DNA from: an uncultured Clostridia bacterium
GTDB lineage: Bacteria; Bacillota; Clostridia; TANB77; CAG-508
Direction of reading: 5' to 3'
DNA length: 64,000 nt
Assembly: GCA_944390695.1 (NCBI GenBank)
Contig: CALXQP010000020.1
Span: 1,789-65,788, forward strand
The notes below the pieces were generated by a model. That model worked only from the letters and a program-made list of their open reading frames with translations. It made no database searches and had not been told where the DNA came from. Each line of letters opens with the position of its first letter. The stretch's first letter is position 1. The translations under genes and the position numbers were made by a program. Below, one piece after another: positions 7,052 through 63,700 of the stretch.

Positions 7052-7059
7052 AATTTGAC

Positions 7060-7156
7060 AAAAAGAGAACCGGCACCAAATTAGCAAAACAGCCCAAACC
7101 AGCTGGCCAAGCGAAAAAGAAGCAAAAAGGCAAAAAGAGAACCGGCACCAAATTAC
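7060..7156. repeat. Dispersed intergenic repeat family A (two direct cores AAAAAGAGAACCGGCACCAAATTA separated by a GC-rich module)
   Basis: Cores at 7060-7083 and 7124-7156 flank the spacer gcaaaacagcccaaaccagctggccaagcgaaaaagaagc. Same family as the copies at 12346, 16190, 21265 and 29955. The second core supplies the TAA stop of the VanW gene. Confidence 0.7.
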
Positions 7157-7890
7157 CCTATTTTAAAAAGCTTAGCAGTAACATTAGTAGGAGAATTTTC
7201 CATCACAATTTTAATCGTATTAGAAGTATTATTTTTAAACTTAAAATCATAAGCACCATAAGAAACAGCAGCATCATTTCCATCTTGAATATATGGAACA
7301 TGCCCACTATGTTTATGTCTTTCCACAACTTCAAGTTCATGGACTTTCAAAACCGCATTATATAAAGTAGTGCTAACCTGGCAATTTCCGCCTCCAAGCC
7401 CCTGCTCTTTTTTGCCTTCTACATAAATATCTGCTTTTTCATATCCTTTATCAGTAGTAGCCTTTCCAACAACTTTCTCAAAAGAAAAAGTTTCACCTGG
7501 CGCAATTTCACAATTAGTTAATCTTTGGCAAGTTATAGTAATATTATTTTGTCTTTCTTCATCTTTATTGTATATTTTAGTAGAAAAATTAGCTATTTCA
7601 GTTTCTTTTTTAGATGAAGTCTCTTTTCCTGGTTTATTAGTAGTTGAATTATTTGATATATTATCATCTTTACCGTTTATATCAGTAGTTTTATCATCTT
7701 TTTTTTCAGCACTACCTTCATTTTTAAAATCATCTTTATTACTTGTAGTAGTGCCGCTTCTCTGAGCTTGATAATTCGAATTATTAGTTCCTTGTTCTGA
7801 ATTATTTGTACTATTCCTTGAACTAAACCACCACCAAGCACCTCCAGTAATTAATGTTAAAACTACCCCTATCACAACATATTTCTTCAT
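7153..7890 (-). CDS. VanW domain-containing protein (N-terminal TM anchor)
   Basis: 245 aa. GETFSFEKVVG...GGGNCQVSTTLYNAVLKVHELEVVERHKHSGHVPYIQDGNDAAVSYG matches VanW family conserved blocks. N-terminal hydrophobic helix. Confidence 0.75.
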   Translation of the reverse strand: MKKYVVIGVVLTLITGGAWWWFSSRNSTNNSEQGTNNSNYQAQRSGTTTSNKDDFKNEGSAEKKDDKTTDINGKDDNISNNSTTNKPGKETSSKKETEIANFSTKIYNKDEERQNNITITCQRLTNCEIAPGETFSFEKVVGKATTDKGYEKADIYVEGKKEQGLGGGNCQVSTTLYNAVLKVHELEVVERHKHSGHVPYIQDGNDAAVSYGAYDFKFKNNTSNTIKIVMENSPTNVTAKLFKIG

Positions 7891-12276: not shown

Positions 12277-12345
12277 GAAATTTTCCTCCTTTTTTGTTTT
12301 ATAATCCTATTATTCCAAAATTTTAGAAAAAAATTACTAGAAAAA

Positions 12346-12513
12346 TTTGGTGCCAGTTCTCTTTTTGCCTTTTTTGCTCCGCCTCGCTTGGCTAGCCGGT
12401 TTGTGCTGTTTTGTTAATTTGGTGCCGGTTCTTTTCTTGCCTTTTTCTTCCTATCTCGCTTAGCTAGCTAGTTTGAGCCAAAATGTAAAAAAGAGAACCG
12501 GCACCAAATTAAC
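12346..12513. repeat. Dispersed intergenic repeat family A (three cores: two direct, one inverted)
   Basis: Cores at 12346-12371 and 12414-12441 (forward) and 12488-12513 (reverse). GC-rich modules gctccgcctcgcttggctagccggtttgtgctgttttg. The inverted pair can form a roughly 25-bp stem. Confidence 0.7.
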
Positions 12514-12587
12514 AAAATTGCCTATTGACAAACGCCACATAAGTGTAGTATAATTATTGATGTATAAATTTTAAAAGGAGATTAATT

Positions 12588-16189: not shown

Positions 16190-16279
16190 TTTAGTGCCGG
16201 CTCGCTTTTTGCCCTATGGCAATTTGGTGCCGGTCCTCTTTTTGCCTTTTGTTAATTTGGTGCCGGTTCTCTTTTTGCC
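16190..16279. repeat. Dispersed intergenic repeat family A (three direct cores)
   Basis: Cores at 16190-16214, 16221-16246 and 16252-16279 (TTAATTTGGTGCCGGTTCTCTTTTTGCC). Confidence 0.7.
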
Positions 16280-16342
16280 ATTTTGGGTTGAATTAAAGAA
16301 GAGCATATGCTATAATATTTGTGAAAAGAGGTTTGGTTTTAT

Positions 16343-18984: not shown

Positions 18985-19105
18985 TATGTGATTTTGCTTA
19001 TTAATAATCAGCTTAAACTAGGTAATTTTAAGTGATTTTATTATTAACCATTAACTCGAATTAGGCGATTTTAAATAATTTCATTACTAACAATTAATTC
19101 GAATT
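18985..19105. repeat. Three tandem roughly 41-bp repeats (…CGAATTAGGCGATTTTAAATAATTTCATTACTAACAATTAATT…)
   Basis: Tandem units downstream of the hypothetical gene, overlapping the recN 3' end. Confidence 0.4.
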
Positions 19106-20732
19106 AGGCAATTTTATTTCTTAATTCTCTCGCATATTGTAATGTAACATCATTTACCTCTCCTGATGATATACGTGCAATTTCACACAATGCTTCTTTT
19201 TCATTTAACAATTTTACATTTGTAGAAGTTCTTTCATTTATAATGTTTTTGCTAATAAAATAATTATAATCTGCTGAAGCTGCAATGGCTGCCAAGTGTG
19301 ATATACAAAGTATTTGATGATTTTTAGAAATACTTTTTAACTTTCCTGCAACTGACTTTGCAGCCTTTCCACTAATACCTGTATCTATTTCATCAAATAT
19401 TAATATCGGCATTTTATCTGCTTCTGCTAATACTTTTTTAATAGCAAGCATTAATCTTGACATCTCGCCTCCTGACGCTATTTTCGTTAATTCATTTTCA
19501 TTTTCTCCCACATTTGTTTTTATAAATATTTCTACTTGATCTTTACCATCTTCGTAAAATTCATTTATTTTATATTCTACTTTAACATTGATTTTCGCAT
19601 TTTTCATTTCTAAATCGATTAATTCTTGATTTATTTTTTCACTTAAAATTTGTGCATTAGTTTTTCTGATTTCACTTAATTTTTCTGCAATTTCAGTCAT
19701 ATATCTTTCTATTTCTTGTAATTCTTTTCTTAATTGGTTATTATATTGTTCAACATTTTCTATTTTTTCTATTTCTTTTTCTACCTCATCTGCATATCTT
19801 AAAATTTCTTCTATATTATTTCCATATTTTCTTTTTAAATTATATATAATATCTAATCTTGTTTCTATTTCTTCCCTTTCTTGTTCATCAAAATCAAGCT
19901 CCTCACTAAAATAACTTATATCTCTTGATATTTCTTGAATTTCATAATATACATTTTTTAAATTATCTGATGATTTTTTATATTTTTCATCAATATCTTC
20001 TATCTTCTCTAATGCCCTTATTGCAGCACCTATTACATCTATCGTATTTTCTCCTATGGCCATATCTGCTTCTGCCAAATTTTTTACTATTTTTTCTGAA
20101 TTCATAAAAAATTTTCTTTTTTCCTCTAACTCTTGTTCCTCTCGTGGCTTTAATTTTGCTTCTTTTATTTCATTTAATTGATATTTTAATAAATCTAACT
20201 TTCTTTGCTTTTCTTTTTCATCTCCATAATTTTCTCTTAACTCTCTTTTTATTTCATTATATTTAACAAATTTTTCTTTGTAATCTTTTTTCAATTCTAA
20301 AATTTCGTCTCCAGAAAAATTGTCCAAATATTTTATATGTGTCTTTGAGTCTAGCAATTGTTGATTATCATTTTGGCCATGTATTTCAATATAATTACTC
20401 ATAAAATTTTTCAATTCTGCTACAGTTACTAATCTTCCATTAATTTTACACATATTTTTTCCATTTGCATAAATCTCTCTTGTAATTATTATATTTCCAT
20501 CAATTGAATTGATATCATTAGGAACATATATGCATAATTCCACATATGAATGATTTTCCCCTTTTCTAATCATCTCTTTTGAGAATCTTCCTCCACAGAT
20601 TATTCCCAAAGAATCAATTATTAATGACTTTCCTGCTCCTGTTTCTCCTGTTAACACATTCATACCATTATTAAAATCAACTTCTAAATCATCAATTATT
20701 CCTATATTTTTTATATGTAAATTTGTAATCAT
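19104..20732 (-). CDS. recN: DNA repair protein RecN
   Basis: 542 aa. Walker A GETGAGKS, long coiled-coil middle, C-terminal signature/Walker B region (ILIFDEIDTGISG). Confidence 0.9.
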   Translation of the reverse strand: MITNLHIKNIGIIDDLEVDFNNGMNVLTGETGAGKSLIIDSLGIICGGRFSKEMIRKGENHSYVELCIYVPNDINSIDGNIIITREIYANGKNMCKINGRLVTVAELKNFMSNYIEIHGQNDNQQLLDSKTHIKYLDNFSGDEILELKKDYKEKFVKYNEIKRELRENYGDEKEKQRKLDLLKYQLNEIKEAKLKPREEQELEEKRKFFMNSEKIVKNLAEADMAIGENTIDVIGAAIRALEKIEDIDEKYKKSSDNLKNVYYEIQEISRDISYFSEELDFDEQEREEIETRLDIIYNLKRKYGNNIEEILRYADEVEKEIEKIENVEQYNNQLRKELQEIERYMTEIAEKLSEIRKTNAQILSEKINQELIDLEMKNAKINVKVEYKINEFYEDGKDQVEIFIKTNVGENENELTKIASGGEMSRLMLAIKKVLAEADKMPILIFDEIDTGISGKAAKSVAGKLKSISKNHQILCISHLAAIAASADYNYFISKNIINERTSTNVKLLNEKEALCEIARISSGEVNDVTLQYARELRNKIA

Positions 20733-20795
20733 ATTAAATATTCATTCCTTTCTCACTTCGCTCAAAGACACATATAGCAATGAAATCCTTGATAT
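20733..20795 (-). promoter_or_regulatory. Conserved 5' leader element (copy 1 of 3) immediately upstream of recN
   Basis: Gene-sense TCAAGGATTTCATTGCTATATGTGTCTTTGAGCGAAGTGAGAAAGGAATGAATATTTAAT-ATG. Shares the motif TCAAGG..TTGC.AT..GTGTCTTTGA...AAGTGAGAAAGGAATG with the copies upstream of clpC and the HAD gene. Confidence 0.45.
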
Positions 20796-21039
20796 AATTT
20801 TTTAAAACTATGCATTCTAATGCAAACTTTGCTTATGGTGTATGTGTTACGCATATGTTAGACTCTTAAAATATCTATTCTAATAAAATCCGAATTTTCC
20901 GTATCTTTGTTCGTTTTTTATTATACTAAGTTTTTACTTTTTTGTCAATACTTTTTTCGAACATTTTTTCTTTTTTTGAATTTTTTCGAGATTTTAATGA
21001 AATTTTTTTGTTTTTTTTCGTTTAAGCAGAGCTCTGTAC

Positions 21040-21203
21040 TTGTATATGAAAAATGTTTTTCATATATAAGTACAAGAGGCTTATACTGTTTCCAGTATAA
21101 GCCTCTTGGAGGTACAAGCGACACCGTGGAGTATACTCCCGTGTCTTAGGATAAGAATGCCGTTCTTGCAACTAGAACACACATCCTAAAAGCAAATTTA
21201 AAT
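21040..21203 (-). ncRNA. Candidate structured small RNA / leader downstream of a consensus sigma-A promoter
   Basis: The minus-strand transcript carries four hairpins. One is UUAGGAU...AUCCUAA enclosing GUUCU-AGUUGCA-AGAAC. One is GACACGGGAGUA/UACUCCACGGUGUC. One is a perfect 16-bp stem CAAGAGGCUUAUACUG-gaaa-CAGUAUAAGCCUCUUG. One is UACUUAUAUAUGAAAAA/UUUUUCAUAUACAAGUA, followed by the palindrome CAGAGCUCUG. The region has locally elevated GC. Confidence 0.35.
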
Positions 21204-21210
21204 CATCTAC

Positions 21211-21239
21211 ATTTTACCATCATTTTACATAATTGTCAA
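21211..21239 (-). promoter_or_regulatory. Consensus sigma-A promoter (TTGACA-17-TAAAAT)
   Basis: Minus strand reads cTTGACAattatgtaaaatgatggTAAAATgtagatg. The -35 is perfect and the spacer is 17 nt. Confidence 0.5.
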
Positions 21240-21264
21240 GCACTTTTTTTACCCTTTTGGGCCA

Positions 21265-21377
21265 GAGCCAAAAAAAGCAAAAAGAGAACCGGCACCAAAT
21301 TAACAAAACGCCGCAAACTGCCTAGCTGAGCGGAACAGGGGGCAAAAAGGCAAAAAGAGAACCGGCACCAAATTAAC
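21265..21377. repeat. Dispersed intergenic repeat family A (two cores, reverse orientation)
   Basis: AAAAAGAGAACCGGCACCAAATTAAC at 21279-21304 and 21352-21377 flank gccgcaaactgcctagctgagcggaacaggggg. The uvrA TAA stop lies inside the second core. Confidence 0.7.
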
Positions 21378-24201
21378 ACAAATATTTACCCAAAAACTTG
21401 CCTGTATAGCTTCTCTCATTTTTGCAAATTTGTTCAGGAGAACCGATAGCGATAACTTCTCCGCCTGCATCGCCACCTTCAGGGCCAAGATCAATAATAT
21501 GATCACAAGTTTTAATCAAATCCAAATTATGCTCGATAACAATAATAGTATTTCCCGTATCAACAAGTCTTTGCAAAATATCGACTAGTCTGTGGACATC
21601 TGCAATGTGAAGTCCTGTAGTAGGTTCATCTAATATGTACAAAGTCTTGCCAGTAGCCCTTTTAGAAAGTTCTGTAGCAAGTTTTACACGTTGAGCCTCG
21701 CCTCCAGAAAGAGTAGTTGAAGGCTGGCCAAGTTTGATGTAGCCAAGGCCAACATCAAATAGAGTTTGAATTTTTTGTTTAATTTTAGGAATATTTTCAA
21801 AAAATTCAAGAGCCTCTTCAACAGTCATATCAAGCACATCAGCAATATTTTTACCTTTATATTTAACTTCCAAAGTCTCTCGATTATAGCGCTTGCCTTT
21901 ACACACTTCACATGGAACATAAACATCTGGTAAAAAGTGCATTTCGATTCTGTGAACACCATCACCATTACAGCTCTCACATCTACCACCAGCAACATTA
22001 AAACTAAATCTACCTTTTTCATATCCTCTAATTTTGGCCTCATTAGTTTCAGCAAAAATATCTCTAATCAAATCAAAAGCACCTGTGTAAGTTGCAGGAT
22101 TAGAACGAGGTGTACGTCCAATTGGAGATTGGTCAATATTAATTATTTTATCAATATTATCAAGACCCTTTATGGCCTTACATTTTCCAGGCTTTTCGCT
22201 TGCACCATTTAATTGTTGAGCAATATTTTTATATAAAACCTCATTTACAAGAGTACTTTTTCCAGAGCCTGAAACACCTGTAACACAAGTAAAAACTCCA
22301 AGAGGAAATTTGACACTAACATTTTTCAAATTATTTTCCGTAGCACCAACAATTTCAATACTCTTTTTATATCCTTTTCTTCTAGTTTTAGGAACATGAA
22401 TTTGTTTTCTTCCACTTAAATAATCACCTGTAATTGAGCCTTGTACCTGTTTTATTTCCTCAGCAGTCCCTTGTGCCATAACTTGACCACCATGAACACC
22501 AGCACCTGGCCCAATATCTATAATTTGATCAGCAGCATACATTGTATCTTCATCATGTTCTACAACTAGCAAAGTATTTCCCAAATCTCTTAACTTTTTC
22601 AAAGTAGCAATTAATCTATCATTATCTCTTTGATGTAGCCCGATACTTGGTTCATCTAAAATATATAAAACTCCTGTTAAACCAGAACCGATTTGAGTTG
22701 CCAAACGAATACGCTGAGCCTCGCCTCCAGAAAGAGTTCCCGCACTTCTAGATAAAGTTAAATATTCCAAGCCAACATCAACCAAAAATTGTAATCTTGA
22801 ATTGATTTCTTTTAAAATCATGTCTGCAATTATTTTTTGAGACTGAGTTAGCTCTAAATTAGAAAGAAAAGATTGCAACTGATTTATTGACATATCTGTC
22901 ATTTCATTTATATTTTTATCACCAATTTTTACACTCAAAACTTCTTTTTTCAATCTTGCGCCATTACATTCATCACAATGCATATTACTCATGTACATCT
23001 CATAAAAATCTCTCATTCCTTGAGATTTAGTCTCATTGTGACGCCTCTCAAGTGTCGGAATTACGCCCTCAAAAGGTGTTTTAAATTTTCTGATACCATA
23101 TGGTGACTCAAACTCAAAATCAATTTCTTCAGTACCTGTACCATATAAGATTTTCTCCAAAAAATCTCTTGGCAAATCTTTTATTTTCTTATTTTTTATT
23201 TCTACACTATAATGTTTTCCAATACTTTCAAAATACATTTTGGCCATAGTGTCACCTTTTTTCATAGTACTTGAGCCAAAAGCCTTTACACCATCATATA
23301 ATGTTTTAGTTTTATCTGGAATAATCAAATCTTCATCCATTTTCATCAAATAGCCTATTCCAGAGCACTTTGGACAGGCACCATATGGATTATTAAAAGA
23401 AAACATTCTTGGAGTCAATTCAGGGAAACTAAAGCCACAATCAGGACATGCATAATTGCAACTATAAAGTACAGGTTGTTTGCCAACAATATCTATTAAA
23501 ACCATATTTTCTGCATGTTTTAGAGCAACTTCGATTGATTCTGTAAGTCTACCAACAATCTCCTTTTTGATAACTAATCTATCAACAACAATTTCAATTT
23601 CATGTTTTTTATTTTTATCTAATTTAATTTCATCTGTTAAATCAAAAATCTCTCCATCAACTCTGACTCTGGCAAAACCATCTTTTTGCAAATCTTCAAA
23701 AAGCTTAGTATATTCACCTTTTCTGCTCCTAACAACAGGAGCCAAAACTTGAATTCTAGTGCCTTCTTCCAATTTCATTACATTATCGACAATCTGATCT
23801 ATTGATTGTTTCTCAATTTTTTTTCCGCAATTTGGACAATAAGGAACACCAATTCTTGCATATAATAAACGAATATAATCATATATTTCAGTTACTGTTC
23901 CAACTGTTGAACGTGGATTTTTTGAAGTTGTTTTTTGGTCAATAGAAATCGCAGGTGATAGCCCATCAATTGACTCTACATCTGGCTTTTCCATCAATCC
24001 TAAAAATTGGCGAGCGTATGATGACAAGCTCTCAACATATCTTCTTTGACCTTCTGCATATAGTGTATCAAATGCTAATGATGATTTTCCAGACCCTGAT
24101 AATCCTGTTATTACAACTAATTTATCTCTTGGAATTTCCAAATTTATATTTTTTAAATTATGTTCTTTAGCTCCTTTAATTACTATTTTGTCGTTCATCA
24201 T
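21373..24201 (-). CDS. uvrA: Excinuclease ABC subunit A
   Basis: 942 aa. Two ABC ATPase modules ([20 protein letters not shown]), zinc-finger CxxC pairs, signature LSGGE motifs. Confidence 0.97.
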
Positions 24202-24971: not shown

Positions 24972-25040
24972 AAAAATTTCATTCCTTTCTTGCTTTTCAC
25001 TTCATTCAAGGCACTTATTGCAACAAAAGCCCTGAAATAA
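24972..25040 (-). promoter_or_regulatory. Conserved 5' leader element (copy 2 of 3) upstream of the HAD hydrolase gene
   Basis: Gene-sense TTCAGGGCTTTTGTTGCAATAAGTGCCTTGAATGAAGTGAAAAGCAAGAAAGGAATGAAATTTTT-ATG. The stem TCAGGGC/GCCTTGA is retained through compensatory changes relative to the other copies. Confidence 0.45.
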
Positions 25041-25286
25041 TTTCTTTAAAATTAACTCTCCTTTTTCCAATACTACTTTAGTTTACTACATTATGTTTAT
25101 TTAGTCAAGCTCTTTCTAATTTTGAATTTTTAAAGACCAACAATTTAATTAAATCAATCAAAACTATTGACTTTACATCTATTTCACTGTATAATTTTAA
25201 TTGTATTTTTTCAATATTTTTATTATTTATTTTTTATTTCTTAAAGTATTTTCGTACTAACTTTCAAAATAAGGAGGTGAATATAT

Positions 25287-25952
25287 ATGGAAAATAATGA
25301 TAAATTAGACTTAATTTTGAATAAATTAAGCCAAAATGACGATAGAATTGATTCAATTTTAAATAAGTTAATCCAAAATGATAATAGAATTTATTTAATC
25401 TGTGAAAATTTAAATTCTATGTCTGGACAAATTGATTCCTTAAATAAGCAAATTAATTCTATGTCGAGACAAATTGATTCCTTAAATAAGCAAATTAATT
25501 CTATGTCTGAACAAATTGATTCCTTAAATAAGCAAATTAATTCTATGTCCTTAAAATTAGAAGAACATGATAAGAAATTTGATATAGTCTTCGAAAAATT
25601 AGAACAACATGATAAAGAGTTCAAGGCTATAAATCAAAAACTTGATTTTGCTTTTGAAAAATTGGAACAACATGATAAAGAGTTCAAGGCTATAAATCAA
25701 AAACTTGACTTTGCATTTGAAAAATTGGAACAACATGATAAAGAATTCAAAACTATAAATCAAAAATTTGATATAGTATTTAATGAATTAGACAAACATT
25801 CTTGCCAATTATCAAATATTAATAGAAGATTTGATTTAACATTATTAGAACTAAAAAAAGATTTTAACACTATTGAGCAAAAATATAATGAAACAGATAA
25901 AAAAGTAGAAGATAATACTTTAAGAATTTCATTCTTAGAAGATGCCATTTAA
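25287..25952 (+). CDS. Coiled-coil protein built from tandem repeats
   Basis: 221 aa, SD AAGGAGG. 14-aa units SMSxQIDSLNKQIN ×3 and 20-aa units FEKLEQHDKEFKAINQKLDFA ×3. Heptad-like pattern throughout. Confidence 0.6.
   Translation: MENNDKLDLILNKLSQNDDRIDSILNKLIQNDNRIYLICENLNSMSGQIDSLNKQINSMSRQIDSLNKQINSMSEQIDSLNKQINSMSLKLEEHDKKFDIVFEKLEQHDKEFKAINQKLDFAFEKLEQHDKEFKAINQKLDFAFEKLEQHDKEFKTINQKFDIVFNELDKHSCQLSNINRRFDLTLLELKKDFNTIEQKYNETDKKVEDNTLRISFLEDAI
25417..25790 (+). repeat. Intragenic tandem DNA repeats (3×42 bp, then about 3×60 bp)
   Basis: ctatgtc[tg]gacaaattgattccttaaataagcaaattaatt repeated at 25417, 25459 and 25501. ttgaaaaattggaacaacatgataaagagttcaaggctataaatcaaaaacttgactttgc repeated from about 25590. 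Confidence 0.7.
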
Positions 25953-29938: not shown

Positions 29939-29954
29939 TTTGTCTCCTCTTTTT

Positions 29955-30054
29955 TGTTAATTTGGTGCCGGTTCTCTTTTTGTCTTTTTCTCCCTGCGCC
30001 GCCCGGTTGGCTAGTTTGCGGTGTTTTGTTAATTTGGTGCCGGTTCTCTTTTTG
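29955..30054. repeat. Dispersed intergenic repeat family A (two direct cores)
   Basis: TTAATTTGGTGCCGGTTCTCTTTTTG at 29967-29992 and 30029-30054 flank tctttttctccctgcgccgcccggttggctagtttgcggtgttttg. Confidence 0.7.
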
Positions 30055-30059
30055 CCATT

Positions 30060-31289
30060 TTACTTTTTTCTTCTTAATATCCAATTCTCTTCACATCTAA
30101 TAGGCAACACCATTTTGACAACTTGCCCTTTTACACCTGGATTAACAACATCAATTTCTTCATTTGTTTCAGCATCCCATAAACCCTCTATTTTAAATTC
30201 AATTGGTTCTAGTTGGTGTGGAACTATTATTTCCATTATGTCTCCAACTTGTAATCTATTGCGTATTTCAATAATAGCTTTATCTCCGTCATATTTTAGA
30301 ACTTTACCACCAAATTGATATTTTTCATTATATTGATGTCCATCATATTCTTGAATATCTTTATTTTTTCTATCATTAAAATAAAATGTTGTTAATTCTC
30401 TTGTTTTAATTTTTTCAATTTCTTTCATGTATTTTTTTGCATCATAATTTTTTGGATCTCTTTTGTAATCATCAATTGCATTTCTATACACATTTACTAT
30501 ACTTGCAACATAATACTCTGTTTTTAAACGACCTTCTATTTTTAGACTATCTATTCCCATATCAATTATTTCAGGCAATTCATTTATTAAACATAAATCT
30601 TTTGATGAAAATATACTTGTTCCATATTCATTTGTTTCAATTGGCATAAATTCACCAGGATTATTTTTTTCTTCAGCATATAAATTATATGACCATCTAC
30701 AACTTTGTGCACAATCACCTAAATTCGCACTTCTACATGCTAAAAAATCACTTAAAAAGCATCTACCAGAAAAAGCAAAACATATTGCACCATGGATGAA
30801 TATTTCTATTTCCATATCATCTGGCTTATTTTCCATTATATATCTTAATTGCTCTTTATTCAATTCTCTTGCCATTATCATTCTTTTGGCAGCATTTTTT
30901 CGCCAGAAATTGCAATCATGTAAGCTTACTATATTTGCTTGTGTGCTTACATTTATAGCAACACTTGGTGCATATTGTTTTAAAACTTCAATTACTCCTC
31001 CATCTGCTGCAATAATACCATCTGGTTTTAATTCCTCTAATTTTTTTGCCATTTCAATTATTTCTTCATATTTCTCGTCCCAAGCAAATATATTTAATGT
31101 AACATAAATTTTTTTACCTATACTATGTGCATATTTAATTGTCTTTTCTAAATCATCATCTCCCATATCTGCTCTTGTTCTTAATGATAATGATGATGTA
31201 CCACAATATACTGCATCAGCCCCATAAAGATATGCAATTTTTGCTTTTTCATATGACCCTGCAGGTGCCAATAATTCTACTTCTTTCAT
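30060..31289 (-). CDS. Peptidase U32 family protein (collagenase-like)
   Basis: About 409 aa from MKEVELLAPAGSYEKA. Conserved U32 blocks (ELLAPAG, E..IHGA.C...SGRC.LS) and a C-terminal β-barrel extension. The start was chosen at the second ATG, which is 12 nt from SD AAAGGAA. Confidence 0.85.
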   Translation of the reverse strand: MKEVELLAPAGSYEKAKIAYLYGADAVYCGTSSLSLRTRADMGDDDLEKTIKYAHSIGKKIYVTLNIFAWDEKYEEIIEMAKKLEELKPDGIIAADGGVIEVLKQYAPSVAINVSTQANIVSLHDCNFWRKNAAKRMIMARELNKEQLRYIMENKPDDMEIEIFIHGAICFAFSGRCFLSDFLACRSANLGDCAQSCRWSYNLYAEEKNNPGEFMPIETNEYGTSIFSSKDLCLINELPEIIDMGIDSLKIEGRLKTEYYVASIVNVYRNAIDDYKRDPKNYDAKKYMKEIEKIKTRELTTFYFNDRKNKDIQEYDGHQYNEKYQFGGKVLKYDGDKAIIEIRNRLQVGDIMEIIVPHQLEPIEFKIEGLWDAETNEEIDVVNPGVKGQVVKMVLPIRCEENWILRRKK

Positions 31290-35911: not shown

Positions 35912-38900
35912 TTATCTTTCTATAAAATATCTTATAATTACACTATTATCAGTAATTTTTGTTGTATTATTTTGGTCTGCATTATAAGCATTTATATCAA
36001 AAGTTAATTGTTTAGTATTTGCATTATAAGCTACATAATTATTTGGTAGAGTTGAACAACTAAATAACTCTTCTCCATTATATTCAACAACTAATTTGTT
36101 TTCTGAATTTATCACTAAATTCTTTTCTAATTGAATTGTAATTTTTCCTGAAGTTGTTGTAACTGGTTTTTGAGGATTCATCTCTTCTTCTAAGTTTCTA
36201 AATATGTCTGCTAATGATTCTGCATCTTCTGCAGTTCTAACTTTTCCATCAGAAGATATATCTCCTAGAACTTCATAAGCATCTGAATCTGGGTCAATAG
36301 CATCTGAACCAAATCCTATTGAATAGATTGTTGCACTTCTCTTATTTTCTCCATCTTTTATTTTAGTAGCAGTGTTTGTAATATTATTTTTTGAGTTATC
36401 TTCATATCCATCAGTTCTAGTTGATGTTGGGTCTCCATCTCCTAAGAATATAACAACATTACTATTATTTGGATAAGTTGCTACAAGGCCATTATTTTTA
36501 TCATATATAACATCATAAGTTTTATCTAATGCTGCTTTTATATGTGTTCCATATCCTGAAGTAGCTGTTCCAATATCAATATTTCCTATTTCTGTTATTA
36601 AATCTTGATAATTTTTATTTGTTGCTGTAGTTTGGTCATTGTTTTTACCAAAAGTTAATACTCTTGTTCCAACATATTTGTTTCTATTACTTATTGATTT
36701 TTGGTTAAATGTTACAACAGTAATAGTTGCTTTAGAATCTGGATTTTTGTATACTTCTTTAATAAATTCTTGAGCTGCTTTTTTAGCTGCTTCTAATCTT
36801 GTTCCTTGTGATACATTTTTACCCCATATACCTGTACTCCATTGTTCTTCACATCCTTCAGGACAATACTCTCCCCACCAATTATAACTATGTTCATGTG
36901 TACATTTTACAAAAGTATAAATCTTTTCATTCATACTTGAAGATAGGTCTATTACTAATACTATATTATTAGCATCTTTTCCTTGTTCTCCTGGTTTTGT
37001 TCCTACTTCTACACCACTAATTTCATTTATTTTTGTTGTTACTTTATCTGTTTTATTTTCTGGTGTAGATGATGGTGTATCATCACTTAATTTGGCTGTA
37101 TTTTCAATTGTTTTACCAATTTGATCTGCATTTATTTTAACTGTAACTGTTAAATTAGTTATTCCATTATTTGCTGGAACTTCTATATTTGACCATGTAA
37201 CTACTCCATTTGCATATATACCACCATTATCTGATCTAACATATGTTACACCTTCTGGTAATATATCTGTAACTGTCGTTACTGTTCCTCTTGCTTTTCC
37301 AGTATTTGTTAATTTTATTGTATATGTTACTTCTTCTCCAACTTTTGCAGTCTTTGGAGCTAATTTTTCTATACTAATATCTGGTTTTCCATAATATACT
37401 CTAATTATATTATTTGCTGGATCTGCTGATATTGTCAAAGGTGTTCCTTCTATTCTATCTAATTGATATCCATTTGGCATATTTGATGTATCAATATCTT
37501 CAGCATTTATTTGACTTCCTAATAATGCTTTTAGACCTTGGCTTGTTTCAAATGGTTCTGTTTCTCCATCTTTATAATATTCTACAGTATAAGAAATTTC
37601 ATCTTTTACATAATATACTTCTATTATATTATTTTCTGGATTTGATGTTATTGTTAAAGGTGTTCCTTCTATTCTATCAAGTTTATATCCTGCTGGCATA
37701 TTTGATGTATCAACATCTTCTGCATTTATTTGGCTTCCAAATAATGCTTTTAGATCTTGATTTACTTCAAATGGTTCTGCTTCTCCATCTTTATAATATT
37801 TTACTGTATATGAGAATTCATCTCTTATATAATATACTTCAATGATATTTCGAGTTGGATCTGCTGTTACTTTTAGTGGTAATCCACTTGTTTTGTCAAA
37901 CTTATATCCATCTATATTTTTATCTGTATATGTACTAATAATAGAATCAAATTCTGCTTTTAAATTATCAGTTTTACTATCATCTTGAATTCCATCATAA
38001 TAGTACTTAACAGTATAATCTATCATTGCTTTTTCATAATAGAAATTGATTTCATTTCCTTCTAATTTTACTGTTATTGTTTGTTCTGTTGGATCAACTT
38101 TGTTATATCCAGGTATTTCTATTGCACTTTCTGTTATTTCACTATTAAATACTAATCCTGTTAATTCTTTGCTTTCTGCTAATTTTGTTGTTGTATCTTT
38201 TAAATAGTAATTTACTATTCCTGTTAATCCTGTTACTGGTGTATAGTAGAAGTTTATTTCATTTCCTTCTAATCCTACTGTTATTGTTTGTTCTGTTGGG
38301 TCAACTTTTTCATATCCAGGTATTTCTATTGCACTTTCTGTTACTTGGCTATTAAATACTAATCCTGTTAATTCTTTGCTTTCTGCTAATTTTGTCGTTG
38401 TTCCTTCTAAGTAGTAATTTACTATTCCTGTTAATCCTGTTACTGGTGTATAATAGAAGTTTATTTCATTTCCTTCTAATCCTACTGTTATTGTTTGTTC
38501 TGTTGGATCAACTTTTTCATATCCAGGTATTTCTATTGCATTTTCTGTTACTGTGCTATTAAATACTAATCCTGTTAATTCTTTGCTTTCTGCTAATTTT
38601 GTTGTTGTATCTTTTAAGTAGTAATTTACTATTCCTGTTAAATCTGTTCTTGGTTCATAGTAGAAATTAATTTCATTTCCTTCTAATTCTACTGTTATTG
38701 TTTGCTCTATTGGAGCTAACTTATTATATCCAGGAATATCTATTGCACTTTCTGTTACTGTGCTATTAAATACTAATCCTGTTAATTCTTTACTTTCTGC
38801 TAATTTTGTTGTTGTGTCTTTTAAATAGTAATTTACTATTCCTGTTAAATCTGTTCTTGGTTCATAATAGAAATTGATTTCATTTCCTTCTAATTTTACT

Positions 38901-40618
38901 GTTATTGTTTGCTCTGTTGGACCAAATTTATTATATCCAGGTATTTCTATTGCACTTTCTGTTACTTGGCTATTAAATACTAATCCTGTTAATTCTTTAC
39001 TTTTTGCTAATTTTGTTGTTGTATCTTTTAAATAGTAATTTACTATTCCTGTTAAGTCTGCTCTTGGTGTCCATTTTGCATAATATGTTGTTGTTCCTGC
39101 AGGATAATTTTCTGGTAAATTTGTAACTTTTTCTCCAGTAAATTCTGGATCAGCATACCATCCGTCAAATACATATCCTGGTCTTTCTGTTGTTGGCATA
39201 TTTCTATCTGTTATTGGCTCTCCTTTTATTCCTGTAAGGTCCTCAACTTCAGAACCACCATTTTCTTCAAATACTATATAAGATTCAACTTTTGTTGTAT
39301 CTGTATTAGTATCTGTTCCACCAACATTTGCTATATTTATTATTTCACTATCAATACTTGTTACTCTAACTTTAAAGCTTCTTGTTATTGTTTCATTTGC
39401 AGCTAAAGATATTGACCATGCAACTGTATCTTTTTCTTCTGATACTATTGCATCACCTTCTGCTGACACAAATTCTGTTCCTGTTGGAACTTTGTCTGAT
39501 ATATATGTTTTTCCTTCACCATCACCTGTATTTGATACAGTTATAGTATATGTAATAATATCACCTATTCTTGCAGCTTCAATTCCTTCTGTAATTTCTT
39601 CATTATCTTGAATTCTCGTTATAACACTTGATTTATTTGCTATTATTATTGATGTTTTTGTTTCTTCTTCTCCATCATCACCAGTACTCTTTTCTCCATT
39701 TGCTATAGCTGTATTTAGAATTGTTCCTGTTAATGGAACTAATACTCCATTTTCATCTAATTTATTTTCATTAACATTTACTGTGAATCTAGCAACTACT
39801 GTTTCTCCTGCTGGAACTGTTACAACCCATTTAACACCTTCAACTACATTTTCAGAGTTAACAGTTGTTTTTGTTCCTACAACTTCATTTGCTATAACTG
39901 CATCTTCAATAGATACAAAAGTAGTGTTTTCTGGTATTTTATCTGTTATTTCAATATTTTTTACATCTACTTCACTATTATTTGTTACAGATATAACATA
40001 TGTTAAATCTTGACCAGCATATACAAAATTGTCTCCTCCAACACCTGTTATTACTGATTTTCTAACATCTAATTGTGGTTTTTCTACATCTAATACAGTT
40101 GGTTGATCAACTTTAATTGCCATTGGTTCCCACCAATCGAAAAATTGTCTTGATACTATTCTCTCAACTTCTTCATATCTTGTAATTGTTGTTTCACCAA
40201 CTTCATTTACATCTGTCCCTGTTGTTATTTCTGCATTTTCATCATCATTATTATTTTCTGTATTACCTTCGTTGTTTGCTGTATTATCATTATTTACAGC
40301 TTCATTATCTGCATTATCATTGTTTTCATTATCATTATTGTTTTCTGATTCTTCACCTTCATTTTGAACAGGTGTTTCTGGATTTTCAGTTTCATTACCT
40401 ATATTAGGATCTGTATCTGAATTATCATTATTTTCAGTTTGATCTCCATCTACAGGTCGATTTCCATCATTTTCTTGTTCTGGAGTTGTTGTTGAAGTTT
40501 GGTCTCCATCAACAGCGGCTGTCTCTCCTCTAGTGTACAAGAATACTCCTACCGATATTCCAGCAATAAACAATAATACTACTACTGTGATAATAGCAAT
40601 AATACTCTTTTTGCTCAT
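35912..40618 (-). CDS. Giant surface adhesin: N-terminal TM anchor, acidic linker, DUF11 repeat domains, Listeria-Bacteroides repeat, 5+3 MucBP-like repeats, C-terminal von Willebrand factor A (VWA) domain
   Basis: 1568 aa. The MIDAS motif VLVIDLSSSM marks the VWA domain. DUF11-like blocks YTITVSNTGDG and VTYTIKLTNTGKARG. GYVFDGWYADPEF fits the Flg_new repeat. Five roughly 93-aa and three roughly 92-aa YY-containing β-repeats. No C-terminal LPXTG. Confidence 0.8.
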   Translation of the reverse strand: MSKKSIIAIITVVVLLFIAGISVGVFLYTRGETAAVDGDQTSTTTPEQENDGNRPVDGDQTENNDNSDTDPNIGNETENPETPVQNEGEESENNNDNENNDNADNEAVNNDNTANNEGNTENNNDDENAEITTGTDVNEVGETTITRYEEVERIVSRQFFDWWEPMAIKVDQPTVLDVEKPQLDVRKSVITGVGGDNFVYAGQDLTYVISVTNNSEVDVKNIEITDKIPENTTFVSIEDAVIANEVVGTKTTVNSENVVEGVKWVVTVPAGETVVARFTVNVNENKLDENGVLVPLTGTILNTAIANGEKSTGDDGEEETKTSIIIANKSSVITRIQDNEEITEGIEAARIGDIITYTITVSNTGDGEGKTYISDKVPTGTEFVSAEGDAIVSEEKDTVAWSISLAANETITRSFKVRVTSIDSEIINIANVGGTDTNTDTTKVESYIVFEENGGSEVEDLTGIKGEPITDRNMPTTERPGYVFDGWYADPEFTGEKVTNLPENYPAGTTTYYAKWTPRADLTGIVNYYLKDTTTKLAKSKELTGLVFNSQVTESAIEIPGYNKFGPTEQTITVKLEGNEINFYYEPRTDLTGIVNYYLKDTTTKLAESKELTGLVFNSTVTESAIDIPGYNKLAPIEQTITVELEGNEINFYYEPRTDLTGIVNYYLKDTTTKLAESKELTGLVFNSTVTENAIEIPGYEKVDPTEQTITVGLEGNEINFYYTPVTGLTGIVNYYLEGTTTKLAESKELTGLVFNSQVTESAIEIPGYEKVDPTEQTITVGLEGNEINFYYTPVTGLTGIVNYYLKDTTTKLAESKELTGLVFNSEITESAIEIPGYNKVDPTEQTITVKLEGNEINFYYEKAMIDYTVKYYYDGIQDDSKTDNLKAEFDSIISTYTDKNIDGYKFDKTSGLPLKVTADPTRNIIEVYYIRDEFSYTVKYYKDGEAEPFEVNQDLKALFGSQINAEDVDTSNMPAGYKLDRIEGTPLTITSNPENNIIEVYYVKDEISYTVEYYKDGETEPFETSQGLKALLGSQINAEDIDTSNMPNGYQLDRIEGTPLTISADPANNIIRVYYGKPDISIEKLAPKTAKVGEEVTYTIKLTNTGKARGTVTTVTDILPEGVTYVRSDNGGIYANGVVTWSNIEVPANNGITNLTVTVKINADQIGKTIENTAKLSDDTPSSTPENKTDKVTTKINEISGVEVGTKPGEQGKDANNIVLVIDLSSSMNEKIYTFVKCTHEHSYNWWGEYCPEGCEEQWSTGIWGKNVSQGTRLEAAKKAAQEFIKEVYKNPDSKATITVVTFNQKSISNRNKYVGTRVLTFGKNNDQTTATNKNYQDLITEIGNIDIGTATSGYGTHIKAALDKTYDVIYDKNNGLVATYPNNSNVVIFLGDGDPTSTRTDGYEDNSKNNITNTATKIKDGENKRSATIYSIGFGSDAIDPDSDAYEVLGDISSDGKVRTAEDAESLADIFRNLEEEMNPQKPVTTTSGKITIQLEKNLVINSENKLVVEYNGEELFSCSTLPNNYVAYNANTKQLTFDINAYNADQNNTTKITDNSVIIRYFIER
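36820..39060 (-). repeat. Intragenic tandem repeats (5 × about 279 bp, then 3 × about 276 bp) encoding MucBP-like modules
   Basis: Near-identical DNA units are visible, for example ...catttccttctaatcctactgttattgtttgttctgttgg... recurring every roughly 279 bp between about 37660 and 39060. Confidence 0.75.
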
Positions 40619-56384: not shown

Positions 56385-56447
56385 TCCTTTCTCACTTTAA
56401 TCAAAGACACTCATCGCAACAAAAGCCTTGAGTTAATTTCTTTCAAA
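56385..56447 (-). promoter_or_regulatory. Conserved 5' leader element (copy 3 of 3) upstream of clpC
   Basis: Gene-sense TCAAGGCTTTTGTTGCGATGAGTGTCTTTGATTAAAGTGAGAAAGGAATGGAAT-ATG. Same motif as upstream of recN and the HAD gene. No CtsR heptad direct repeat was recognised. Confidence 0.45.
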
Positions 56448-56624
56448 CTATTTTTCCTCTTTTTTGTCTGGAGTTATTTCTTTTTTAGTCATATCAGCCA
56501 TGTCTTCTGCCTTTTTCTTTTGCTCTGGTAATGGTATCCATGCAAAATATGATGATACAAATTCTCCATATTGTGTAGCATCTTCTCCAACCTCTGGATG
56601 TGTTTGTTTTTGTTTTTTATCCAT
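56448..56624 (-). CDS. Hypothetical small protein (58 aa from MDKKQKQ)
   Basis: SD AAGGTAGGTG about 8 nt upstream of the ATG. Charged, with a W/P-containing middle (YFAWIPLPEQ). Its stop abuts the conserved clpC leader. Confidence 0.35.
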   Translation of the reverse strand: MDKKQKQTHPEVGEDATQYGEFVSSYFAWIPLPEQKKKAEDMADMTKKEITPDKKEEK

Positions 56625-60397: not shown

Positions 60398-60722
60398 TGG
60401 TTGTTCCCTCTCTGCTTTGTATCCTTTCTATCTCTTTTCTATTTCTTTTATTATATTAATGTATTATATTAATGGCTAAAAAATTTTAATCTTGAAAATA
60501 TTTTTATTTACTTATATAGAACTTAAAAATGAAAATTAAAATTAAAATTGAAATGAAAATGAAATTAAATAAAATATTAGTAATTGAATTTTTTATATTA
60601 ATATTCGATATTAATTTATTCTTCTTAAATTATTATTGATTACTAGCAGCTATGCTATGAATTAAATTTTTTTGAAAATTTAAAATTTTTGATCTAAAAT
60701 TTAAAAATATTTGACTTTTTTA

Positions 60723-63700
60723 TTAATTTTTATTGATTAAACATTTCGCAAAATTGGTATTTTGCGAAGCTATCTTCGTGAATGCTGGGCCAAGGTCTAG
60801 GGTGGTCATTGATTCTTCTCCACACATATGAAACATATAATTCATCTTTGTTACTTCACTCGTATCAAATTTATCCCCTAAGTCTAAACTTGTCATTGAT
60901 GTATATCCACAACTATAGAACATATTTGTCATATTTGTTACATTGCTTGTATCAAATTTATCTCCTAAGTCTAAACTTGTCATTGCTATAGCTCCACACC
61001 CATAGAACATATATTGCATATCCGTTACACTACTTGTATCAAAATTATCTCCTAAGTCTAAACTTGTCATTGCTGTATATCCACAACCATAAAACATATT
61101 ACTCATATCTGTTACACTATTTGTATTAAAATTAGGACCTAAATTTAAAGTTGTCATCGCTTTATTTCCACAACTATTAAACATAAAATTCATGTCTGTT
61201 ACATTGCTTGTATCAAAATTTTCTCCTAAGTCTAAACTTGTCATTGCCGTATATCCACAATTATAGAACATACTTTTCATCTCTGTTACTTGACTTGTAT
61301 CAAATTTATCCCCTAAGTCTAAACTTGTCATTGCTTTATATCCACACATAGTAAACATATAACTCATATTTGTTACATTACTTGTATCAAAATTATCTCC
61401 TAAGTCTAAACTTGTCATTGTAGAAAATCCACACTGAAAGAACATACTATCCATATTTGTTACATTACTTATATTTAGTAAATCTATGTTCACAATTACA
61501 TCTGTTGCTGTACAAGTATTAAAAAAACCTATATTTGAAAATAAACGACTTGAATCCGGATTAGCCTTTATTTCTCCTGAATCGGTTCCTATATATACTT
61601 GATATGGATTATTTCCCGTGTACCATGCCATTATTGAACCATCTTGTGTATCTGAAACATCCCATGCTGTACTATTTGCTCCTGCCGTACTATCTACAAA
61701 TGTTACTTTTTCAATGTACTGTCTCTGTAATGCTGTATTTCCTAGAAATGGACTTGTCATTGCTGTTTCTGTGTTTGTTGCTCTTAATGTTGCTTCTCTG
61801 TATATTGGGTTTATTCTTCCTAATACGCCTGAAACTGTTGTTGTCGAATTCGCATTTAGCTTAAATAGCTTTTGAGTTTGATATATATCTTCATGTGCAT
61901 ATATTGTGGTATTCGAATGACCACAATTTGTAATAAAATTTGTATGTTCAGTTGCTATATTCTTAAATTCTGGCCCTAGATCTAATACATTTAATGAACC
62001 ACTTCCGCAATAATAAAACATCTCACGCATATTTGTTACATTACTTGTGTCAAACTTGTCTCCTAGGTCTAGCATAGCTAAGTTCCCTTCACCACATCTC
62101 CAAAACATACCCTCCATATTTGTCACATTGCTTGTATCAAACTTATCTCCTAAACCGAACGATATCATTTTATATCCACAGTTACTAAACATATATCTCA
62201 TATCTGTTACTTGACTTGTATTAAACTTATCACCTAAACTAAAGCTCGTCATTTCATTCGTACCACAATTATTGAACATATATCTCATATCTGTTACATT
62301 ACTTGTATCAAAATTAGCTCCTAAGTCTAAGCTTGTCATTGCGTTCATTCCACAGAATTGAAACATACCAAGCATATTAGTTACTTTGCTAGTATCAAAA
62401 TTATCTCCTAAATCTAAATTTGTCATAGCTTCACGTCCACAATTATCAAACATAAACATCATGTTATTCACTTGACTTGTATTTAATAAATCTAGATTTA
62501 CTATTACATCTGTTGCTGTACAAGTACTTGCATAACCTATTCCATTAAATAAATAACTAGAATTTTGATTTGCTATTATCTCTCCTGAATCGGTTCCTAT
62601 ATATACTTGATATGGATTACTTCCTGTGTACCATGCCATTATTGAACCATTTTGCTCTACTGATACATCCCATGCTGTACTGTTTGCCCCTGATGTACTA
62701 TCTACAAATGTTATTTTTTCAATGTACTGTCTTTGCAATGCTGTGTTTCCTAAAAATGGACTTGTTCGTGATGTTTCTCCATTTGTTGCCATTAATGTGC
62801 CTGGCTCAGTAACTGATTCATACTCTGCAATTAATGTTGCACCTGTTGGAACCCTAATTGTTGTTGTAGAATCTTTTCCTGTTTTAAATAAACTGCTACT
62901 ATAATATATATCTTCTGATACATAAATATTGGGTGAATCACCACAATCCGTTATAAAATTACTATGACTTGATGCGATTTTGGTGAATTTGGGGCCTAAA
63001 TCTAAAGTAGTTATTCCTCCTTCTCCACAACTAGAAAACATGCTATTCATATTAGTTACTTTACTTGTGTCAAATTTATCTCCTAAGTCTAATGTTCTCA
63101 ATTCATTACCTGCAAACATCCAAAACATATAACTCATATTTGTTACTTCACTTGTATCAAATTTATCTCCTAAGTCTAATGTTTGAAGATCAGAGCATGC
63201 TTGAAAAAACATTTCACTCATATTTGTTACTTTACTTGTATCAAAATTGTTACCCAAATCTAAACTACTTCCACAGCCTAATCTATAAAACATTCTACTC
63301 ATATTTGTTACATTGCTTGTATTAAATTTGTCTCCTAAATCAAGACTCTCACAAGTAAACTCCTCAAACATAGCACTCATATTTGTTACTTTACTTGTAT
63401 CAAATTTTGAACCCAAATTAAAAGCCGTCCAGTCTTGTCCAAAATATCTAAACATGTAACTCATATTTGTTACTTTACTTGTATCAAATTTGTCTCCTAA
63501 ATCAAAATCATCTTCTACTGTTCCATATGTTCCACATTTGTCAAACATATATGCCATATCTGTTACATTACTTGTATCAAAATTAGGTCCTAGATTTAAA
63601 GTTTTTAAATCATAATATCCACATTGTTTGAACATTCCTCTCATATTTGTTACATTACTTGTATTTAGCAATTCTAAATCTATTACCATACTTGGATCAG

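Follow-up and report, generated by a model that had tools for sequence, protein, structure and literature searches.

The 640-nt gap between uvrA and recN (positions 20733–21372) in the window, by which we mean the whole 64,000-nt stretch of DNA analysed here, probably contains a small non-coding RNA gene, marked by a promoter and a run of hairpins. On balance we lean toward reading the minus strand from ~21239 to ~21060 (possibly ~21020) as a separate gene for a trans-acting small RNA, which would belong, as a shortened member with rearranged parts, to an undescribed family of RNAs located between uvr genes and recN in uncultured gut Clostridia. A preliminary description of this DNA had raised three possibilities, namely a small RNA, a long structured recN leader or an RNA of the adjacent repeat family, and the first of these is the best supported, as four other lineages share the promoter and the core of the RNA at this locus.

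Results

The uvrA-recN gap contains a consensus-like promoter and consecutive hairpins

The gap length given in the preliminary description is correct, and relatives that keep uvrA beside recN have gaps of 113 to 1783 nt. The two genes and the parts of the RNA are arranged as follows.

21373–24201, minus strand: uvrA (NCBIfam equivalog model)
21211–21239, minus strand: sigma-A promoter of the RNA (promoter scan and near-identical promoters of homologues)
21146–21189, minus strand: hairpin 1 (P1), with an inner hairpin (fold)
21143–21153, minus strand: P1-P2 junction motif UAUCCUAAGAC (identical 11-mer in the homologues L021, L088 and L089)
21120–21145, minus strand: hairpin 2 (P2), GACAC-G-GGAG-UAUA-CUCC-AC-G-GUGUC (-11.7 kcal/mol)
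21108–21119, minus strand: linker GCUUGUACCUCC, 12 nt, carrying the anti-Shine-Dalgarno-like heptamer UACCUCC (21114–21108)
21073–21108, minus strand: hairpin 3, CAAGAGGCUUAUACUG / CAGUAUAAGCCUCUUG with a GAAA loop, then UACUUAUAUAU (fold and model alignment)
21034–21075, minus strand: hairpin 4, imperfect, 18 bp, UUGUACUUAUAUAUGAAAAA / UUUUUCAUAUACAAGUACAG (-16.7 kcal/mol, z = -6.5)
21027–21036, minus strand: palindrome CAGAGCTCTG = CAGAGCUCUG (read from the sequence)
20900–20971, minus strand: recN promoter region, context outside the RNA (promoter scan, 12/12 matches)
19104–20732, minus strand: recN (NCBIfam equivalog model)

The promoter scan bears out the minus-strand promoter reported earlier, with a -35 element TTGACA at 21239–21234, a 17-nt spacer and a -10 element TAAAAT at 21216–21211, giving 11 of 12 consensus matches, to which an extended -10 TG at 21219–21218 (TG-g-TAAAAT) can be added. 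The predicted start of the RNA lies ~7 nt past the -10 element, at ~21204–21206. The 25-nt promoter pattern TTGACAATTATGTNAANTNATGGTA occurs once in the window, where no occurrence would be expected even when three mismatches are allowed.

The four consecutive hairpins seen earlier downstream of this promoter are also present, and the sequence from 21000 to 21210 (minus strand) folds at -70 kcal/mol as against -38.6 ± 4.1 kcal/mol for 200 shuffled sequences (z = -7.6). The energy minimum of P1 uses the register UUAGGAU/AUCCUAA and encloses a small hairpin, GUUCU-AGUUGCA-AGAAC, while an alternative register, AGGAUG/CAUUCU, corresponds to the P1 of the homologues. The perfect 16-bp stem of the preliminary description is hairpin 3, which runs from 21108 to 21073 and by itself folds at -27.3 kcal/mol (z = -8.6); its base is overlapped by hairpin 4 for ~3 nt. 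The palindrome said to follow the hairpins was found at 21036–21027, just beyond position 21040 at which the element had been taken to begin, and its CAGAG is able to pair alternatively with CUCUUG of hairpin 3. The absence of a U-tract terminator was likewise seen here, as no site in the window copy passes the terminator scan and hairpin 3 is followed by UACUUAUAUAU; nor does any terminator-like site pass the scan between 21204 and recN. The linker heptamer, as TACCTCC, is found just 3 times in 128 kb with both strands counted. The G+C content of the element is raised, as had been noticed, at 0.35–0.40 against 0.21–0.26 for the remainder of the gap and recN, with uvrA at 0.36–0.45.

Homologous RNAs are found between a uvr gene and recN in four other lineages

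The recN loci of 80 species were fetched, and uvrA lies directly upstream in only ~10 of them. In these relatives the gap holds nothing, a dCMP-deaminase gene, small membrane proteins, a TM2-like ORF or Transposase_31 genes. The relatives found by RecN are MAGs under the names 'uncultured Clostridia bacterium' or 'Clostridium sp.', with one chromosome of 1.55 Mb, and the RecN of the window species is present in ENA gut metagenome assemblies. Searching with the window RNA by nhmmer returned the same species only, even against all recN loci, and a profile of the relatives matched the window at just the promoter (E = 0.046) and the junction and P2 (E = 4.3).

The resemblance to locus L021 was first noticed by eye, and consists of the promoter and of the identical 11-mer with a hairpin behind it; a canonical terminator comes next. 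When the loci were scanned with a promoter 13-mer, L010 and L012 emerged, which are homologous to L021 at E = 1e-12; a covariance model made from five sequences (L021, L088, L089, L010 and L012) yielded L101–L107 at ~100 bits, and a second model yielded L108 at 70 bits (E = 1e-14), with L101 and L108 left out of the models that detected them. The homologues thus obtained represent four species-level lineages besides that of the window: L021/L088/L089, L010/L012, L101–L107 and L108. L101–L107 is a common gut lineage, whose RecN cluster was seen on 342 contigs, with 389 collection blocks listed in the index. In ~590–620 kb of related loci the models gave nothing further save terminator look-alikes, and scanning one metagenome with the promoter pattern gave only two more strains of the L021 species. 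Among viral contigs the promoter pattern had 0 matches, and the 6 matches to the junction pattern were judged to be chance; the one that was read has a G+C content of 0.54 and no hairpin following.

All of these RNAs occupy the same place. The order is uvrA, RNA, recN promoter in L021 and L108, with uvrB replacing uvrA in L010 and L101, and the window has uvrA, RNA and recN promoter in this order, all on the minus strand. Almost identical promoters stand ahead of the RNAs of L021, L010/L012, L101–L107 and L108; the family promoter is TTGACAWTTATGTWAAWWKATRGTAWWMT and the window version of it TTGACAATTATGTAAAATGATGGTAAAAT, so that the promoter is nearly unchanged over five lineages while the transcribed 5' parts diverge. 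Canonical terminators are detected by the scan in L021 and L101, and in L010 a hairpin with a U-tract was read from the sequence; L108 has a strong 3' hairpin without a U-tract. Between the uvr stop codon and the element no terminator was found in L021, L010, L101 or L108, and the element may for this reason also receive uvr read-through.

Covariation supports a multi-helix RNA on the strand of uvr and recN

The full-length RNA is ~215 nt long and has eight helices. It is built from hairpin P0 at the 5' end, a closing helix of five pairs, P1 with P1a and P1b inside it, the junction, P2, a linker and the 3' hairpin. The P1b loop reads UC-UUACCUC, and the junction occurs in the variants UAUCCUAAG / UAUCCAACAG / UUUCAACAG. 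The invariant unpaired stretches are CUGUC, UGAGU and UUACCUCCU, and the 3' side of P2 (UCUAGU) is also invariant. The most conserved of the unpaired sequences is UUACCUCCU, which lies in the P1b loop and does not vary across all four other lineages.

In an alignment of 9 sequences from these four lineages, 95.9% of the pair cells are standard pairs and 18 of the 54 pairs have changed on both sides, as compared with 38–57% pairing and both sides changed in 1–3 pairs when the 3' partners were slid by 1–3 columns; none of 500 shuffles reached the observed covariation values. The independent lineages number four and the alignment was fitted to the model; against the latter limit, two of the lineages were absent from the models that detected them. 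Several pairs (columns 60/82, 144/163 and 51/130) are G.U in most or all sequences and would be A.C on the opposite strand, from which it follows that the transcribed strand is that of uvr and recN.

The window copy keeps the core of the family and lacks several helices

The core order of P1, junction, P2, linker and 3' hairpin is kept in the window copy. Two models built without the window (R1 and R2) align its P2 and 3' hairpin, while its P1 was read from the sequences, in which the counterparts are GGGAUUCU/AGAAUCCC in L021 and AGGGAA/UUCCCU in L010. The junction 11-mer TATCCTAAGAC is the same in the window and in L021, L088 and L089 at the equivalent position, and is replaced by UAUCCAACAGG, UUUCAACAGG or UUUCCACAGG in the remaining lineages. 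The model-based alignment places the window P2 on helix 7 of the family, and two of its pairs, read from the sequences, have changed in a compensatory manner: outer pair 4 is A-U in the window, C-G in L021 and A-U in L010, and an inner pair is G-C in the window, A-U in L021 and G.U in L088. Hairpin 3 begins exactly 12 nt after P2, the same spacing as that of the L021 terminator, and is aligned to the terminator helix of R1 and R2; the 16-bp hairpin is the positional counterpart of the family terminator hairpin. Hairpin 4 has no counterpart in the homologues and is unique within the window, and together with the palindrome it is specific to the window species.

P0, the closing helix, P1a and P1b with its UUACCUCCU loop are all missing from the window copy, and UACCUCC is found in the single-stranded linker instead of the P1b loop. 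In the model alignment the 5' half falls on the promoter region of the window, a forced placement with low posterior probability. The window copy scores 21.1 bits (E = 0.003–0.005) and is the sole match at E < 0.01 on both strands of the 64 kb; however, a false match to the terminator only reaches 22.6 bits in 586 kb of control loci, and membership is therefore based on position, promoter and 11-mer and not on the score. A 10-nt string in the 5' part of the window copy, UUCUAGUUGC, recurs in L108 as the 3' strand of P2, a match that hints at earlier rearrangement. Taken together, these comparisons suggest that the window copy is a shortened, rearranged variant and not a typical member of the family. 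A second sample of the window species shows no difference in the element region, but divergence there is too low for this identity to be informative.

The RNA has a patchy distribution within one clade

Absence from close relatives, which the preliminary description had held would count against the element, applies in part: the RNA is absent from the closest relatives (RecN 82–84% identical; gap short or with a Transposase_31 gene) but occurs in members of the same clade that are less closely related. The relatives closest by RecN (84%) and by UvrA (94%) have no RNA in the gap, which is short or holds Transposase_31, dCMP deaminase or a 121-aa ORF, and most lineages of the clade have no such RNA at this locus. 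A neighbour-joining RecN tree covers the window, L010/L012 and L021 as carriers (L101 and L108, obtained afterwards, are outside it); in it the carriers fall within one genus-level clade and are interspersed with lineages without the RNA at the locus. The simplest reading of this pattern would be an ancestral gene lying in an insertion hot spot, where it has time and again been lost or displaced, and in genomes that lack it at the uvr-recN locus the RNA is either dispensable or elsewhere. As all homologues were reached via recN or uvrA neighbourhoods, the association with repair genes may partly reflect the design of the search, that is, a sampling effect.

recN has its own promoter downstream of the RNA

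A second, perfect sigma-A promoter (20948–20920), absent from the preliminary description, lies 290 nt downstream of the RNA promoter, with TTGACA at 20948–20943, a 17-nt spacer and TATAAT at 20925–20920 matching the consensus at 12 of 12 positions. It gives recN a leader of its own of ~180 nt, and it is flanked by GTTCG/CGAAC elements, AGAAAAAATGTTCG at 20971–20958 and CGAACAAAGATACG at 20913–20900; the same layout of promoter and flanking elements is seen in every related locus inspected. The SOS box of Bacillus has the consensus CGAAC-N4-GTTCG, and judged against it we take AGAAAAAATGTTCG and CGAACAAAGATACG to be two imperfect, putative LexA/Cheo-box sites. The presence of its own promoter with LexA-box-like flanks suggests that recN is probably damage-regulated from there. 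The recN promoter is the downstream limit of the RNA gene.

This promoter, conserved in all relatives, intervenes between the element and recN, and the idea of a long structured recN leader is consequently not supported. Nor is a recN riboswitch, on the same ground, together with the canonical terminator that precedes the recN promoter in relatives. The best duplexes between the RNA and the recN leader were within 1 s.d. of shuffled controls in the 4 lineages tested, and recN is thus not indicated as a target.

Known families, repeats and coding sequence do not account for the element

A search of the whole window with Rfam 15 gave nothing at the gathering score, and around the element only chance-level matches (E ~1–10, far below gathering), so that no known family is assigned to the region; the lack of a riboswitch match agrees with the earlier impression that it resembles none. 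The full-length L021 and L101 homologues had no family match in Rfam above chance level either. 6S RNA was considered and rejected, as already judged from its folds, since no RF00013 or 6S-like match appears at E up to 10 in the window, L021 or L101, and the folds are multi-hairpin with ends that are not paired into a closing stem; the one exception is a Bacteroidales-1 match on the reverse strand, with E = 1.6 and 15.8 bits where gathering requires 60. A full-text literature search found no relevant description of such an RNA.

The suggestion that the RNA belongs to the adjacent repeat family did not hold, as the repeats (38 nt with a 72-nt period, at 21271–21381) share nothing with the element, which is single-copy in the window. 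A dispersed repeat or miniature mobile element was rejected because the 64-kb window, the part of this genome that was covered, holds a single copy and no further ones turned up in ~620 kb of related loci. We agree that there is no convincing ORF in the window copy, where the only candidate has 12 codons and an AGGA abutting its AUG. A small protein gene was rejected for the family as a whole: the 25–30-codon ORFs of the relatives shift frame and have no Shine-Dalgarno sequence, with indels of 1 and 2 nt between L088 and L021 inside the only candidate ORF and the shared core read in another frame in L010.

Discussion

We propose that the RNA is transcribed from its own strong housekeeping promoter with a start near 21204, and that it would be ~145 nt long if it ended after the 16-bp hairpin or ~185 nt if it continued through hairpin 4. 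Its anti-Shine-Dalgarno sequence would then pair in trans with the ribosome-binding sites of target mRNAs, and this pairing would lower their translation. C-rich small RNAs of Gram-positive bacteria pair with ribosome-binding sites, and we favour this mode of action because the invariant UUACCUCCU, which is complementary to strong ribosome-binding sites, is the only functional lead; presumably it resembles the 3' end of 16S rRNA, where we take the motif to equal seven consecutive bases. An anti-Shine-Dalgarno mechanism is our best guess, drawn from a motif of just 7–9 nt.

An unlikely account of the window copy is that it is a decaying remnant, a family gene disrupted by rearrangement and palindromic insertions in a hot spot, the hairpins of which are DNA-level palindromes (for example remnants of miniature mobile elements) and not parts of a functional RNA. 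The missing P0, P1a and P1b, the moved UACCUCC, the scrambling hinted at by the copy of the L108 P2 strand (UUCUAGUUGC), and two (near-)perfect hairpins, 3 and 4, without sequence counterparts in relatives are all consistent with such decay, as are the inverted-repeat elements, Transposase_31 genes and other unrelated inserts in the gap of relatives, and a copy with neither a U-tract terminator nor three of the family helices may be non-functional. Nevertheless, the copy retains a strong, undamaged promoter and complete P1 and P2 hairpins with compensatory changes, hairpin 3 stands exactly as far past P2 as the terminator of L021, the hairpin sequences are unique in the window, and the second sample of the species has the same sequence, although the low divergence makes this identity uninformative. 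We give still less credence to the view that the element is an upstream promoter with a structured leader for recN, in which read-through from 21204 would provide LexA-independent expression or a long regulatory 5' leader. The shared orientation, the lack of a terminator passing the scan ahead of recN and the L108 hairpin, which likewise has no U-tract, would allow it, but recN has its own perfect promoter in all relatives, a canonical terminator stands ahead of that promoter in three of the four homologous lineages, in none of the four lineages does the RNA pair with the recN leader better than shuffled controls do, and the element is set apart from recN by ~260 nt of A-rich spacer together with a promoter region with putative LexA sites.

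The separate small-RNA gene that we prefer has also to be weighed against a role as the 3' end module of a uvr mRNA, the hairpins terminating or stabilizing uvrA or uvrB transcripts and the short RNA being a processing product. The element always comes directly after a uvr gene, and with no terminator before it in L021, L010, L101 and L108 the uvr transcripts must end at its terminator; yet a near-consensus promoter that five lineages share base for base is more than a 3' UTR needs, and eight covarying helices with invariant loops exceed what a terminator requires. We regard this role as improbable in place of a small RNA, although the two are not mutually exclusive. There is, lastly, a very slim chance that the RNA binds protein as a decoy, its UUACCUCCU loop mimicking the 16S 3' tail and titrating a factor that recognizes this tail instead of pairing with mRNA. 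A multi-branched, covarying architecture with invariant loops is more elaborate than that of most base-pairing RNAs and the motif equals seven consecutive bases of the 16S 3' end; against this, no candidate partner gene is linked and the window copy keeps the heptamer only, in a different context. In a broader version that we hold to be improbable, the loop would imitate the 16S tail and compete with it or act as its decoy, either at Shine-Dalgarno sequences or towards a tail-binding factor, with the RNA kept beside excision- and recombination-repair genes. Were this so, translation control would be linked to a DNA-damage locus in small-genome gut Clostridia, and the window copy would be a minimal version reduced to the essential parts (P1, P2, heptamer and 3' hairpin).

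Under the small-RNA reading, a structured family of ~215 nt is added to uncultured small-genome gut Clostridia, a group in which we know of no characterized regulatory RNAs. The invariant anti-Shine-Dalgarno loop offers a concrete, testable hypothesis, and as a carrier lineage is widespread in public assemblies, existing human-gut metatranscriptomes are suited to a test of expression. The window copy would be an example of an RNA gene of this type that has been pared down and remodelled within an insertion hot spot.

Among known systems, 6S RNA is similar in its length, strong housekeeping promoter and abundant secondary structure, but here the ends form no closing stem, there is no central bubble, and the 3' end is a terminator hairpin. 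The SOS-linked type I toxin-antitoxin pairs tisB/istR and dinQ/agrB also have a constitutive-looking small-RNA promoter beside a promoter with putative LexA sites, and differ in that the present locus has no conserved small hydrophobic ORF on either strand and no antisense overlap, and the neighbour is recN. The small RNAs MicL and DapZ, from the 3' ends of enterobacterial mRNAs, are comparable in that the RNA described here has a promoter of its own, comes directly after uvrA or uvrB with no terminator between them (in relatives), and uses one terminator in common with the upstream mRNA; unlike theirs, its promoter is past the stop codon and not inside the coding sequence, and the sequence and host group are unrelated. 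The C-rich or anti-Shine-Dalgarno small RNAs (RsaE/RoxS, the cia-dependent csRNAs of Streptococcus and the C-rich loops of RNAIII) share with it an own promoter, a 3' hairpin and an unpaired pyrimidine-rich motif complementary to ribosome-binding sites, here UUACCUCCU in a loop and UACCUCC in the linker of the window copy. No similarity to them in sequence or model is seen, Rfam, which is expected to include them, giving no match, and the full-length form here is twice as long, with eight helices and a promoter without a known regulator site. The family is absent from Rfam 15 and is otherwise an ordinary kind of object, a small RNA gene.

Repeats in the window and the top-scoring UvrA match

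An interspersed repeat rich in G+C occurs at five sites in the window, with 1.5 to 3 copies at each and a period of about 72 nt.

7052-7161, interspersed repeat
12337-12517, interspersed repeat, inverted pair
16190-16288, interspersed repeat
21271-21381, interspersed repeat
29952-30061, interspersed repeat

In each unit a 38-nt block (TTTTGTTAATTTGGTGCCGGTTCTCTTTTTGCC) is accompanied by about 35 nt of semi-conserved sequence (CGCTnnGCTAGCnnGTTTGnGnnG); the orientation is variable, and the inverted pair at 12337-12517 gives a hairpin of -63 kcal/mol. The repeats lie immediately 3' of gene ends at four of the five sites, and one overlaps the stop codon of uvrA; no match to them was found in Rfam. 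This is the adjacent repeat family to which the preliminary description had suggested the RNA might belong, and it has no relation to the RNA.

Long in-frame tandem repeats are also contained in large open reading frames of the window, which probably encode repetitive surface or structural proteins.

25413-25862, 42- and 63-nt periods, in a 221-aa coiled-coil-like ORF, 25287-25952 (+)
38033-39160, 207-nt period, in a 1568-aa ORF, 35912-40618 (-)
60721-63676, 87-nt period, in a 1026-aa ORF, 60723-63803 (-)

The best-scoring match to UvrA was P0216, a JGI protein of 1548 aa (2168 bits, reported without BLASTP identity or coverage). The protein is about as long as UvrA and RecN combined, which may reflect a fusion or an artefact of gene calling across a short uvrA-recN gap.

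The recN leader

The 5' leader of recN in the window (20733-20913, minus strand) is about 180 nt long, compared with about 35-50 nt in relatives, and its final 75 nt are one of three copies of a sequence family within the window, all of them immediately 5' of a start codon.

20758-20823 (-), in front of recN
25001-25066, before a 229-aa HAD-like gene
56397-56462, before an 809-aa gene

The copies share AAATTAnnTCARGGnTTTnnTTGCnATnnGTGnCTT, which includes a hairpin (UCAAGGC/GUCUUUGA) and is followed by AAAGTGAGAAAGGAATG, the source of the ribosome-binding site and, in one copy, of the start codon as well. Among all loci compared, the family was not found outside the species of the window, and it may represent a mobile leader cassette or a cis-regulatory element.

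The recN promoter and its upstream region

In related loci from uncultured gut Clostridia, an insertion hot spot lies 5' of the recN promoter.

L108, 1100-1390, insert upstream of recN
L006, L008, L016, L018, L020, L023, L065, L075 and L076, inserts upstream of recN

Several unrelated non-coding elements occupy it, 200-500 nt in length and carrying long terminal inverted repeats; the arms are about 50 bp in the L108 element, and one family, marked by ATGGCACCCTTCCAC...GTGAAC...TTTCCAT, recurs in L006, L023, L075 and L076. In some lineages the site is occupied instead by Transposase_31 genes, a dCMP deaminase or small membrane proteins.

The recN promoter itself is flanked by two imperfect LexA-box-like sites, and this bracketed layout is kept in every related recN locus inspected.

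20900-20971 (-), window, both sites and promoter
2898-2965, relative L021, both sites and promoter

The downstream site, at the recN transcription start, reads CGAAC-N4-nTnnn, and the upstream site is in many relatives CGAAAAAAAGTTCG, which agrees at 13 of 14 positions with CGAAC-N4-GTTCG, the LexA consensus of Bacillus.
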